Positions 12,158 to 26,976 of a stretch of 43,256 bases of DNA are shown here, piece by piece. Positions within the stretch are counted from its first letter, which is position 1, and the number at the start of each line of letters is the position of its first letter. The stretch lies in the IMG/VR virus record IMGVR_UViG_3300027419_000010, positions 1 through 43,256 of that record, one strand, 5' to 3'. The translations under genes were made by a program, and so were the position numbers. Origin of the DNA: a virus. Taxonomy: Duplodnaviria > Caudoviricetes. Under the pieces are notes generated by a model that saw only the letters and a list, made by a program, of their open reading frames with translations, was not told the origin of the DNA and ran no database searches.

Positions 12158-12994
12158 CTAATAATTAATCCCATATGAATTAAGAAATTGCTTGACCCAA
12201 TCATCTATCCTGGTGCCTCGATCCATATAGGCGGTTATCTCGCTTGAAGCGTCTGAAAACAAAGTCTTATCTTCTTCAAGCACCGCGCGCGCCGAATCCG
12301 CTTCTCTCTTGCTGCTTGCATACCACTCTGCCGTTCCTCCGTGATTTTCAACTTCTATCTTTTCTTCCAATAATCTGAACAGCCTGTAATCTATAAACGC
12401 GATCTTCTCGTCTATCTCTGCTACCTTAGTGTTTATCTGGGAAATGAGATTATTTCCAAAAGCCTTCCTGGTGTCCTCTGCGCTTGACGGAGTGGGTTGC
12501 GGTTCAGGGGTGGTTTCGATAGGAGTAACCGTTTCTTCCGTAGAGGGTTGAGTGATTGTCGGTTCTTGCTCTGGTTCCTCCGTTTCTGCTATGCTTTCCG
12601 CTAAGGCATAATTATTAAAATCGGTATCATTTATGATGTAAACGGAGTTGAGATCATAGCCAGAAGTATCGGTAATAAGATGCTTGTCTCCCATATCTCC
12701 ATTCGGCACCAACTGATAAATATCATTTGCGCCATCGACCTTCACTAAGTCAGAAGTTGAAAAAGAATCGATGTAATCCTGAGAGATGACAATGACATTC
12801 TCCCATTTCAAGTGCTGATAACTTTCGAATACTTTAGGATTTAAGACCAACCGCTTATAAACCTTACCGCCAGAATATTTGACGATGTAAATGTCCGGTG
12901 AAACATCAGTCTTTACGATAGCTCCATCGGAAATCTCAGAAGCGTTAACGGGAAACGCAAACAAGATCGCAAGAACCAGCAATAACTTTTTCAT
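12158..12994 (-). CDS. Secreted protein with Parcubacteria-type repeat domain, P/T/E linker and coiled-coil C-terminus
   Basis: Signal peptide MKKLLLVLAILFAFPVNA; DGAIVK...DIYIVK..GGK.YKRLVLNP.VFESY.HLKWEN resembles CPR secreted-protein repeats (from recall). Confidence 0.75.
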   Translation of the reverse strand: MKKLLLVLAILFAFPVNASEISDGAIVKTDVSPDIYIVKYSGGKVYKRLVLNPKVFESYQHLKWENVIVISQDYIDSFSTSDLVKVDGANDIYQLVPNGDMGDKHLITDTSGYDLNSVYIINDTDFNNYALAESIAETEEPEQEPTITQPSTEETVTPIETTPEPQPTPSSAEDTRKAFGNNLISQINTKVAEIDEKIAFIDYRLFRLLEEKIEVENHGGTAEWYASSKREADSARAVLEEDKTLFSDASSEITAYMDRGTRIDDWVKQFLNSYGINY

Positions 12995-13474: not shown

Positions 13475-13503
13475 TTGCGGAATATTTAGAATCGTGGTAT
13501 TAT
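13475..13503 (+). promoter_or_regulatory. Sigma70-type promoter with extended -10
   Basis: TTGCGG-17nt-TATTAT with TGG upstream of the -10. Confidence 0.6.
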
Positions 13504-13509
13504 GCCTGT

Positions 13510-13724
13510 AGAACATTAGAAAACCTTACCTCTCGAGCATAATAGCACGATGACTACTACAAGTAGTTTTTCGTGCTTTTTGTTATCCGAGAGGAGGACA
13601 GTAATTAAGCCATCCGACTGCTTCGGCGGGATATATAGTCTCACTTATCGTCCTCCTTCCGGCTCGTAAGATTGGACGGCGGGGGGAATGCGTAGAGAGT
13701 TCCTCCTGCGATCTAATTTTACGA
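13510..13724 (+). ncRNA. Structured leader RNA: three helical domains, boxA-like 5' end, internal terminator-like hairpin
   Basis: CCTCTCG/CGAGAGG, AGCACGA/TCGTGCT plus T-run, AGGAGGAC/GTCCTCCT with a C(UUCG)G loop, and 13-bp plus 11-bp stems with G-U pairs. Confidence 0.7.
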
Positions 13725-18470: not shown

Positions 18471-18530
18471 AGGCCCGTCTTTTGAAACCTCAAGTCTAGC
18501 AACGAGAGGGACTAGAAAGGCGGGTCTTTA
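18471..18530 (+). ncRNA. Integrase-leader hairpin, candidate antisense immunity RNA
   Basis: 13-bp AGGCCCGTCTTTT/GAAAGGCGGGTCT, inner CCTC/GAGG, apical loop AAGTCTAGCAACGA; stem ends 4 nt before the integrase ATG. Confidence 0.6.
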
Positions 18531-18531
18531 T

Positions 18532-19413
18532 ATGCTTCAAAAAGAGATAGATTTATATTTAAAATGGAAGAGCGGCAATTATCCCAGGGCGGCTAAAATG
18601 TATGAGATACATGTACGGCGCTTCAATGAATATAATAAAAAAGCATTGTCTGAAATAACTATAGAGAATGTAATAGATTTCAATGAAAGCATAAAAAACA
18701 AATACTCCCAGAATCACATCAACTACGCTATGACTGTAGTCAAGGACTTTCTGGGATTTTATTACAAACAGACCGTAAAGGGAAAGAGGAGGTGTAATAT
18801 AGACCCTTCACTGGTAAGGATCAGGAGGAACGAAGCCAACCCTCATTACGCCATTACGGAAAAAGAGTATCGTGAGCTTATAAATAAGATGCCGGAAAAC
18901 GAGTTTTGGCATGCTCAGTTAAAGATTATCGTACGGCTTTTATATGAAACAGGTATCCGCGTATCGGAATTAGTCAATCTGAATATCGAGGACATAGACA
19001 ACCCGAACCATATGGCTCTAATCATTACAAGGAAAGGACGGGAAAAAGGCTGGATAAAATGGAGCGACGACCTGCACGAGACTATGGTAAAGTTTTTAGG
19101 CGTGAGGCTTTGCATGAACCAACAGCCGCATTTGTTTTTAACCAGTACCGGACATAAGAGGCCGACAGTCAGGACTATTGAAAGGTGGGTGAAGAAAATA
19201 GTCCGGGAATATGATATGGATGAAAGGATCGTCGTCCATAGCTTCAGGCACGGCAAGGCGCATTATATGTATGATCATGGCGCGGATCTCGTGGCGGTCC
19301 ACAAGGCCCTTAGGCACAGTAAAAATAATGTCGGCGGCGCTATGCAGTATTTGAGATTCAATGAAAAAGAATCAGATAAGATTTTAACGGAGTTCCTGCC
19401 GGTGACCTATTGA
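18532..19413 (+). CDS. int: Tyrosine recombinase/integrase (XerC/D-like)
   Basis: Catalytic R (TGIRVSEL), K (RKG), HxxR (HSFRH), H (LRHS), Y (MQYL); N-terminal SAM-like domain. Confidence 0.93.
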   Translation: MLQKEIDLYLKWKSGNYPRAAKMYEIHVRRFNEYNKKALSEITIENVIDFNESIKNKYSQNHINYAMTVVKDFLGFYYKQTVKGKRRCNIDPSLVRIRRNEANPHYAITEKEYRELINKMPENEFWHAQLKIIVRLLYETGIRVSELVNLNIEDIDNPNHMALIITRKGREKGWIKWSDDLHETMVKFLGVRLCMNQQPHLFLTSTGHKRPTVRTIERWVKKIVREYDMDERIVVHSFRHGKAHYMYDHGADLVAVHKALRHSKNNVGGAMQYLRFNEKESDKILTEFLPVTY

Positions 19414-19438
19414 CCTTACTTATTTTATGTGATATACT
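19410..19438 (+). promoter_or_regulatory. Strong early promoter
   Basis: TTGACC-17nt-TATACT with TG extension, overlapping the integrase stop. Confidence 0.8.
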
Positions 19439-19444
19439 ACTGAT

Positions 19445-19815
19445 ATAGAACATTGAAATTCGTACGGAAAACAATTTCAGACTCGTTGGTCGCAACAGGA
19501 AAGGCTCAAAGCCTTTTAAAAAAACAAGTAGAATGTCGCAAAATCCTGCTTGTGCGAAAAGGGCTAGAATAAGCCAAGAAAACGAGTCTAAGAAACTCGT
19601 TTTTTTGTTGCTACGGGCCGATAGACCCAACGAGCTATCGGCCTATAGGAGCAAGTAAGGCATAGATTGCTTCATTTCTTAGGCTCCTGTGGATAACTCT
19701 CTTATCCATAGGGCTAAGGAAACGAACGGCCGGGCAGCAAGTAGCTAGTCTATACGACATTGGCACAAGCTTCCCGGCACGTCACGACCTAAAAAGGGTG
19801 GCCTAATCATTAGAC
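19445..19815 (+). ncRNA. About 370-nt structured early-operon leader with attenuator
   Basis: AGACTCGTT/AACGAGTCT antiterminator, internal multibranch, then hairpins GGCCGATAG/CTATCGGCC, TGTGGATAA/TTATCCATA and GCCGGG/CCCGGC; no plus-strand ORF in the track. Confidence 0.75.
19576..19606 (+). terminator. Conditional intrinsic terminator in the early leader
   Basis: AAAACGAGT-CTAAGAA-ACTCGTTTT plus T-run; its 5' strand is shared with the upstream antiterminator helix. Confidence 0.75.
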
Positions 19816-19822
19816 CAAACAA

Positions 19823-20419
19823 ATGACGCAAGTCAAAACGTACCGCATCGGAACTTATGAGCTTATCAACGGCAAATATGTCCTTAAAAATCATAACAGG
19901 ACGTACCGGGGAAAGCCCACCAAGCACATTGAAAAGATAGAAGCAAAAAGGAGAGAAGTGAGAAGAGGAATGGCGGTAATAGTCGCTTGCTTCATTATTA
20001 CGGCGTTACAGATTACTAATAGCTTCGAGATAGAGGCGGAAGGAGTGGCTGCCGGAGATGTAGTAGTCACGGCGGTTGCTCCTACTGACTACAGCGGAAT
20101 TCCTTACATTACCAAGATAGAGCCGAGCGTGGAGGAACAAATAAGAATGATTGCTGCGGAAAAGGATTTCAAATGGGCTGATTACTTGGTAAAGCTGGCG
20201 AACTGCGAAAGCAAGCTGAACCCGAAAGCTATCAACGATAAGAACAGGAACGGAAGTATAGATTGGGGATTGTTCCAATGGAACAGCGAACTTCCTCCGA
20301 TACCGATTACGAAAGACTGCGCTATGGATATCCGGTGTTCTACGGAAAAGACTATCGAGGCAATCAATATGGGATTGCAGGATCACTGGGTATGCAACGA
20401 TATAGTTTTAAACAATTAA
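19823..20419 (+). CDS. Membrane-anchored lysozyme-like/SLT transglycosylase
   Basis: TM segment, then CES..NP.A.N..N.NGS.DWGLFQWN catalytic motif. Confidence 0.8.
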   Translation: MTQVKTYRIGTYELINGKYVLKNHNRTYRGKPTKHIEKIEAKRREVRRGMAVIVACFIITALQITNSFEIEAEGVAAGDVVVTAVAPTDYSGIPYITKIEPSVEEQIRMIAAEKDFKWADYLVKLANCESKLNPKAINDKNRNGSIDWGLFQWNSELPPIPITKDCAMDIRCSTEKTIEAINMGLQDHWVCNDIVLNN

Positions 20420-26825: not shown

Positions 26826-26926
26826 GCCACCTTAGCTCAATGGTAGAGCGGGACAAAAAAGTATCGGGGTCGGAATTAAAAACTTTTCCCATTAGTCTGC
26901 GGCGAGTTCGATTCTCGCAGGTGGCA
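26826..26926 (+). tRNA. tRNA-like RNA (Thr-like body) with anticodon arm replaced by a 40-nt insert
   Basis: Acceptor GCCACCT/AGGTGGC-A, D arm GCTC-AATGGTA-GAGC, T arm GCGAG-TTCGATT-CTCGC; GGAC/GTCT closes a 40-nt loop. Confidence 0.8.
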
Positions 26927-26976
26927 CAAGTTTATTCGTTCTTTCTGGATTTATTTTAACCCCTTAACCAAAACCT

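Follow-up and report, generated by a model that had tools for sequence, protein, structure and literature searches.

The window analyzed in this study (the whole stretch of DNA, 43,256 nt) comprises an entire circular tailed phage of 43 kb with a 127-nt terminal repeat and genes for terminase, capsid, RecT, and YqaJ. The plus strand carries nearly all of its genes. The sole long minus-strand gene between the plus-strand operons (12158-12994) encodes a secreted-looking protein of 278 aa without family match and is a candidate for expression in the lysogen. The region of interest lies between an integrase gene and the early genes (Table 1). In the integrase, the catalytic residues R143, K168, H236, R239, H262, and Y273 are all present, in columns that are invariant in 22 homologs, and the top PDB match is XerA (5hxy, E 1.3e-12). 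A further contig of 51,793 nt also codes for this integrase. The enzyme is catalytically intact as judged from these residues, and recombination by it is putative. Downstream of the first early gene come those for RecT, YqaJ, and a replication protein of DnaD/HNH type. Scans of window ORFs against Pfam and PHROGs (46 proteins) gave no repressor of the CI type; ORFs of no family remain, and a repressor of an unrecognised kind is possible.

Table 1. Features between the integrase gene and the first early gene of the window.
Feature	Position	Strand	Characteristics
Xer-like tyrosine recombinase (integrase), 293 aa	18532..19413	+	Pfam PF00589, E 8.6e-25
Early promoter, sigma70-type (predicted)	19410..19438	+	TTGACC-17-TATACT, extended -10; 10/12 consensus
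Start motif	19447..19458	+	AGAACATTGAAA; identical in L057
Strand A	19479..19489	+	19479-19487 pairs with terminator 5' arm; 19482-19489 pairs with H4 loop
Hairpin H2	19499..19517	+	Position kept in L057, sequence changed (folding)
dif-like recombination site, likely attP	19533..19560		ATGTCGCAAAA-TCCTGC-TTGTGCGAAAA; 11-6-11 inverted arms
Predicted intrinsic terminator	19575..19607	+	-13.1 kcal/mol; kept in L057
Hairpin H4	19605..19654	+	Conserved lower stem, variable upper stem; loop 19625-19634 antisense to strand A
Hairpin H5	19675..19725	+	Terminator 5' arm repeated in its 3' base (19713-19725)
Hairpins H6 and H7	19727..19817	+	Before the first start codon; conserved AGGGTGGC
First early gene, membrane-anchored lysozyme-like (SLT_3) protein	19823..20419	+	

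The early promoter overlaps the integrase stop codon (a TTGACA is found at the same place in the relative L057) and is separated from the SLT-like gene by a leader of about 380 nt, which folds far better than its shuffled versions (z -8.5, 0/100). Its start motif is presumably boxA-like. The terminator consists of a 5' arm (19575-19587), a loop (19588-19594), and a 3' arm with seven U residues at 19600-19606; its core is modest and it was not called by a simple terminator scan. The initial annotation had described an attenuator in which two copies of ACTCGTT compete for AACGAGT, and the copies at 19481 and 19595 are indeed the only two on the plus strand, with AACGAGT at 19581. The hairpin described beyond the terminator (19616-19624/19635-19643) is present with its loop ACCCAACGAG, in which CCAACGAG (19627-19634) occurs as a single copy in the genome and is complementary to 19482-19489. 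A claimed extension of this match to 10 bp with one bulge is found in the window (bulged C at 19626) but is not kept in L057.

The further hairpins expected before the first ORF were found by folding as H5, H6, and H7. Locking of the antiterminated state by the repeated terminator arm at the base of H5 was rejected as the main fold, being 5-9 kcal/mol less stable. The upper stem of H5 (19688-19710) is formed by an inverted pair of 9-mers, presumably DnaA-box-like, which is the sole perfect copy in the genome and is absent in L057; boxes of this kind are also found ahead of the early promoters in L138, L139, and L145. No known riboswitch had been recognised at the outset, and the Rfam search likewise gave no match at the gathering score in the window, the best weak scores being 27.1 for STnc250 (cut-off 42) and 22.5 for PreQ1 (cut-off 39), and no match in the leaders of 10 related loci.

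L057 is a homolog of the leader (nhmmer E 1.6e-10), with a fold of its own at z -11.8. It keeps the full layout, with changed letters at the pairing sites and the same geometry. The helix of strand A and the terminator 5' arm has 9 bp in the window and 10 bp in L057, and the H4 loop matches strand A over 8 and 7 bp, respectively, at the same offset, the match in L057 being kept by compensatory change. Since all three pairings (antiterminator, terminator, and H4 loop with strand A) are preserved in L057 with different letters, the original observation is not due to chance. The compensatory change also supports the attenuator as first proposed, and the leader is a real, conserved element.

Such leaders were rarely recovered by direct search. 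A metagenome scan over 19 of 64 parts gave one true homolog, L057, among the 80 loci retained, and a descriptor of the layout, run over 2.49 Mb from the two strands of 244 loci and the window, returned the window, L057, and one likely chance match. The genome scan gave no leader homolog, exact DNA patterns of the leader had 0 matches in viral contigs, and a pattern of start motif and U-tract gave 17 loci with no homolog by eye or nhmmer. BLAST against GenBank phages found nothing by DNA or protein, and 23 RecT relatives are without such a leader. A two-sequence covariance model applied to 100 sources recovered its own inputs only. In run X3, a 176-nt piece over the terminator and H4 with no listed change gave no covariation, and nothing when placed on L057. 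Runs X1 and X2 possibly represent the source DNA itself.

Between strand A and the terminator, 3' of the recombinase gene, lies a 28-bp dif-like site that occurs once in the phage. This element (19533-19560) had been missed in the initial annotation, and its placement best explains why the attenuator exists. A reading of it as an RNA hairpin, H3, gave way to that of a DNA site, as the element is palindromic with an 11-6-11 arrangement and is present in host chromosomes. The pattern TGTCGY-N14-RCGAC recurs downstream of distant integrase relatives, with 11 strand matches at eight places and 0 in five shuffles. A strict form of the site pattern was found in six of 11 integrase-family virus records against 0 of 13 RecT-only records, in one of 20 SLT records, and in none of three distant integrase records. 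The site is a variant in L138 and a weak copy in G003 (score 14.7); none was found in G002, G004, and G005. Two further arrangements were observed around such sites. In a virus record that has an SLT gene but no integrase visible in the vicinity, a dif-like site occurs with a further half-site and many TGTGGATAA boxes (L034:730-785). In L143, two tandem structured repeats lie between the dif-like site and the terminator (L143:4020-4330) and are possibly another RNA regulator.

Eight leaders were modelled: those of the window, L057, L138, L139, L140, L143, L145, and G447, the latter rejoined at its sites. For each of them the cost of freeing the terminator 5' arm was compared with the mean cost after shuffling the upstream part. 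The native costs and shuffle means (kcal/mol) are 8.4 and 2.4 in the window, 11.0 and 2.2 in L057, 8.1 and 2.1 in L139, 6.7 and 2.5 in L140, and 7.3 and 2.8 in L143, with the native value reached by none of 50 shuffles in each case. In L145 (8.4 and 3.1) and the rejoined G447 (10.6 and 1.4) it is reached by none of 40, and in L138 (5.6 and 2.9) by four of 50. When host dif flanks replace the upstream part, the native cost is reached in 0/40 for seven leaders and in 3/40 for L140. With start points and terminators of the relatives chosen by eye (in L138 and G447 after the complementarity was noticed), the upstream strand is predicted to sequester the terminator 5' arm in all eight leaders modelled. 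Pairing probability alone is less specific, as host flanks reach 0.9 in 6/40 (window) and 3/40 (L057). L141 gave no signal with the first terminator choice (25/60 shuffles); its record is split and the other end is needed.

Strand A sequences are wholly different between the phages, with the pairing kept. The site is located between the antiterminator strand and the terminator in all eight leaders, and is thus more widespread than the H4-type loop match, which is found only in the window and L057. In the co-transcriptional folding that had been proposed as a check, strand A pairs with the terminator arm at p ~1.0 until the 3' arm is complete, both in the window and in L057, making read-through the predicted default. 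At equilibrium, the terminator is within ~1-5 kcal/mol of the antiterminator, and read-through therefore rests on kinetics.

Of 151 genomes of the Patescibacteria, the phylum to which a Buchananbacteria genome belongs, 54 contain an exact match to the site pattern, each with one site, against two control matches. Several host sites have the arms of the window, with spacers that are mostly GATAYA (TCTATC in two cases) and differ from the window spacer TCCTGC; in most cases, only the first one or two spacer bases are common to phage and host. In 19 of 20 host-site loci the GC skew is higher on the left than on the right, with a change of sign in 12 of 20, and in four of 20 a Xer-like gene is found within ~3 kb. 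A Xer-like gene, nearly always one, is present in 232 of 401 genomes, a count that includes the unpublished genome G164. The single-copy element TGTCGYNHAA-N6-TTNYRCGA near the skew shift (e.g., G032:C1:428368-428391 and G013:C1:620911-620934) is therefore a candidate dif site of Patescibacteria; no paper on chromosome dimer resolution in this group was found in a partial coverage of the literature. Because the same arms occur in single-copy Patescibacteria sites, we infer both the dif identity of the phage site and the host, likely an ultra-small member of the Patescibacteria.

Among the relatives, G447 is the only record showing both junctions. It contains two sites as direct repeats, at positions 117 and 40371 of 40,495 nt. 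Its end carries the integrase, the promoter, a strand complementary to the terminator arm, and a site with a host-type spacer, while its start carries a site with a phage spacer, the matching terminator, and early genes including the SLT protein. Each end has exactly 126 nt in common with the implied empty host site, as would be expected for a prophage contig from an assembly with k=127. By this arrangement G447 is an integrated prophage with the antiterminator strand and the terminator at opposite ends. Provirus G001 has ~850 nt of mostly non-coding, AT-rich DNA followed by the site, the terminator, and the SLT gene, and ends at the integrase. G003 is similar, with non-phage DNA, its weaker site, terminator(s), and early genes, and also ends at the integrase. 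As integrated, the cost of freeing the terminator arm is 0.6 kcal/mol in G447 and 1.6 kcal/mol in G001.

No integrated copy of the window's own phage was seen, and phage-type integrases were found in none of three partly overlapping Patescibacteria genome sets (0/401, 0/139, and 0/401) at a positive-controlled threshold. Together with the lack of a prophage in these genomes, the circular contig with its terminal repeat and the divergent spacer are in line with a site whose sole role is the resolution of phage dimers, be it in plasmid-like or in lytic replication; splitting of the leader would then never occur and the attenuator would be set by the H4 RNA alone. We consider this improbable, however, since G447 shows both junctions, one of them with a host-type spacer, since the proviruses G001 and G003 are broken between integrase and early genes, and since the six leaders without an H4-type loop still keep the site-spanning antiterminator. 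One-sided spacer homology is, moreover, typical of dif-integrating phages as far as described in PMC5357621.

We thus favor a reading of the leader as an integration-gated attenuator, to which we assign a probability of about two in three: with a likely attP placed between the two pairing partners, transcription of the free circle would run on into the early genes, and the prophage would be insulated. In the free circle, promoter, strand A, attP, and terminator would follow each other, and strand A would catch the terminator 5' arm ahead of 3' arm synthesis, turning the early genes on. Recombination of attP with the host dif, by the Xer recombinase of either phage or host, would then take place on the left border of the 6-bp spacer and rely on one or two bases common to both sites, in the manner of VGJphi. 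Since phage and host spacers mostly share one or two bases, as in the VGJphi type, such a one-edge exchange with replicative resolution is likely. In the prophage, promoter and strand A would come to lie at the right end and leave the left-end terminator uncancelled, with the early genes off. Silence would be reached without a repressor, and excision would restore the switch.

The position of the site within a transcribed leader, directly after the recombinase gene, would also suit a switch operated by a protein or ligand, in which termination would depend on RNA polymerase being stopped or paused by recombinase at the site, or on the binding of a metabolite or protein to the RNA. A weak PreQ1 match at 19495-19533 points in the same direction, yet its score is far below the cut-off and it is absent in the 10 related loci scanned, so that it was rejected. 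Against such a switch, the sequences of the hairpins that separate strand A from the terminator are not conserved, the DNA site excepted, and strand A itself differs completely between phages that keep the pairing. Such a switch therefore seems scarcely probable to us.

Within the integration-gated attenuator, the weakest step is the role of H4 in the subfamily formed by the window and L057. Matches of the loop with strand A as good as those observed have a chance of 0.0005 (window) and 0.0015 (L057) with random loops, and of 0.005 and 0.003, respectively, with shuffled loops. The hairpin folds at z -5.1 in the window and -6.1 in L057, with conserved flanks. Read-through RNA would display the H4 loop, which would bind strand A on nascent leaders in trans, free the terminator, and throttle the early operon as copies rise. 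Strand A:H4 duplexes have predicted energies of -8.3 and -11.3 kcal/mol, and because the target on nascent RNA opens for only 1.8-4.4 kcal/mol (window) or 1.2-2.6 kcal/mol (L057), binding in trans could restore termination as transcripts accumulate. The early operon may be throttled in this way, much as P4 CI acts; we give even odds to the H4 loop acting in trans to free the terminator. No strong helix with a downstream target of the loop was found in the leaders of the window or L057. Binding in trans could favor lysogeny or block superinfection. Since H4 lies downstream of the terminator and a lysogen would transcribe it by leak only, it would serve as feedback in the circular state more than as classical immunity.

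With the same attenuator and att site, the H4 loop may instead find its strand A partner solely in cis, forming a long-range pseudoknot once read-through has occurred, and would help to refold the leader for processing, stability, or first-gene translation without feedback in trans. Local concentration favors pairing in cis, the terminator together with the strand A:H4 helix (-13.1 and -11.3 kcal/mol) forms a stable end state, and no processing signal was found in the leader. In addition, folds that end at the start codon pair the strand A region just upstream of the AUG in both homologs, but this pairing is gone once the coding sequence is included. An event in cis after read-through would also come too late to affect termination, and the low cost of opening the nascent target speaks for a partner in trans. 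Between the window and L057, H4 varies in its upper stem and loop but keeps the sequence of its lower stem, a pattern that would fit a processed RNA. On balance, a purely cis role appears unlikely, although less so than the two preceding alternatives.

Extended to the whole family, the integration-gated attenuator would represent a repressor-free, all-RNA switch between lysis and lysogeny in Patescibacteria phages: integration at dif would split the antiterminator helix and excision would rejoin it, while in a subfamily a self-encoded hairpin antisense to strand A would count copies and provide a sequence-specific immunity, with strand, terminator, and loop co-varying as it diversifies. We put this forward tentatively, with the odds somewhat against it. 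Small ORFs that are absent in the window directly follow the integrase in some relatives (L141:3939-4115, HTH-like; L139:3887-4108; L138:3656-4003) and may replace the H4 RNA as regulator there. A repressor-free switch may therefore not be family-wide.

The arrangement departs in a defining feature from each of four systems it resembles, namely P4 CI, the BPs type, Tn916, and IMEX. P4 CI (seqA/seqC) and Gifsy-1 IsrK are likewise leader-derived RNAs complementary to an upstream part of their own leader, and like P4 CI the H4 RNA would prematurely terminate a replication operon, whereas IsrK activates and H4 would repress (PMC4825925, in the text available). P4 CI has two targets, upstream and downstream of the RNA, and is a stable, processed, trans-acting RNA; H4 has one target only and its action in trans is a prediction from folding. 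The window further differs in its intrinsic terminator/antiterminator pair, in the att site inside the leader, and in having no C4/CI-type match in Rfam; the available part of PMC2864571 merely lists C4 motifs. In the integration-dependent immunity of the mycobacteriophages BPs, Brujita, and Charlie, recombination also sets the lytic or lysogenic state with attP inside a regulatory element, but there attP removes a degradation tag from a protein repressor within an int-rep-cro unit (PMC3694055, as far as available). In the window, the site lies in a non-coding leader and separates the strands of an RNA helix, and rep and cro were not found. A comparable change of state is predicted by folding for G447 (0.6 kcal/mol split vs. 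10.6 kcal/mol rejoined).

In Tn916, promoters at one end likewise drive genes at the other end only once the element is circular, and a left-end terminator guards against read-through from the host (PMC12084037). Tn916 is a conjugative element for which the available text of PMC12084037 describes no att-spanning antiterminator; in the window, a strand joined on from the other side of the site would disable the terminator. IMEX (VGJphi-type) and the XerS, XerH, and XerA modules share a 28-bp site of 11-6-11 layout, a host site near the skew shift, and one-sided spacer homology, with the recombinase gene beside its site in the single-recombinase modules (PMC5357621, in part). IMEX rely on the host Xer, whereas the window phage encodes its own Xer-like recombinase, and it is a tailed 43-kb phage of Patescibacteria with the site embedded in an attenuator. 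For the relative G447, IMEX-like integration at the host dif is indicated by its arrangement. Integration of lambda separates sib from int. The sib element is also an RNA element that acts on phage gene expression near att (PMC5300877, in part). It lowers int mRNA, whereas the separated element of the window is an antiterminator for the early lytic operon. An att site inside an antiterminator was not found in the literature searched, which was covered in part, and a variant of recombination-gated control with the att site inside an attenuator is likely new here.

If true, recombination of DNA would here reset an RNA attenuator and so give a lysis-lysogeny switch of minimal design that dispenses with the usual repressor. 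Patescibacteria phages are reported to be mostly temperate, with no mention of integrase, Xer, or repressor and no description of their control circuits in the available text of PMC12911398. With its short and portable parts, the model lends itself to tests in vitro or in E. coli, and it suggests that a terminator gated by a recombinase could be built in synthetic biology. The analysis also yields the candidate dif site of Patescibacteria and with it a route to assign hosts to these phages.

Elsewhere in the window, three minor elements were observed. ARAGORN detected no tRNA; a tRNA-like element at 26826-26928, missed by both ARAGORN and Rfam, has clear acceptor, D, and T arms and an expanded anticodon region. 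The region 13490-13600 contains another promoter-like site, again with the start motif (TAGAACATT), and a terminator-like hairpin, and is possibly a small RNA; a CCTCTCG segment in it has complements at 13587-13593 and, in the integrase leader, at 18503-18509. The latter leader (18472-18526) folds into a hairpin of the form stem-GAAA-stem-GACUAG-stem that covers the ribosome site (z -3.9) and contains CAACGAG as does the H4 loop. This CAACGAG copy at 18500 was set aside as a second trigger, as it overlaps a conserved stem common to other integrase leaders. Similar motifs precede the integrases in L137, L138, and L141, and the hairpin possibly serves autoregulation or represents a new cis motif.
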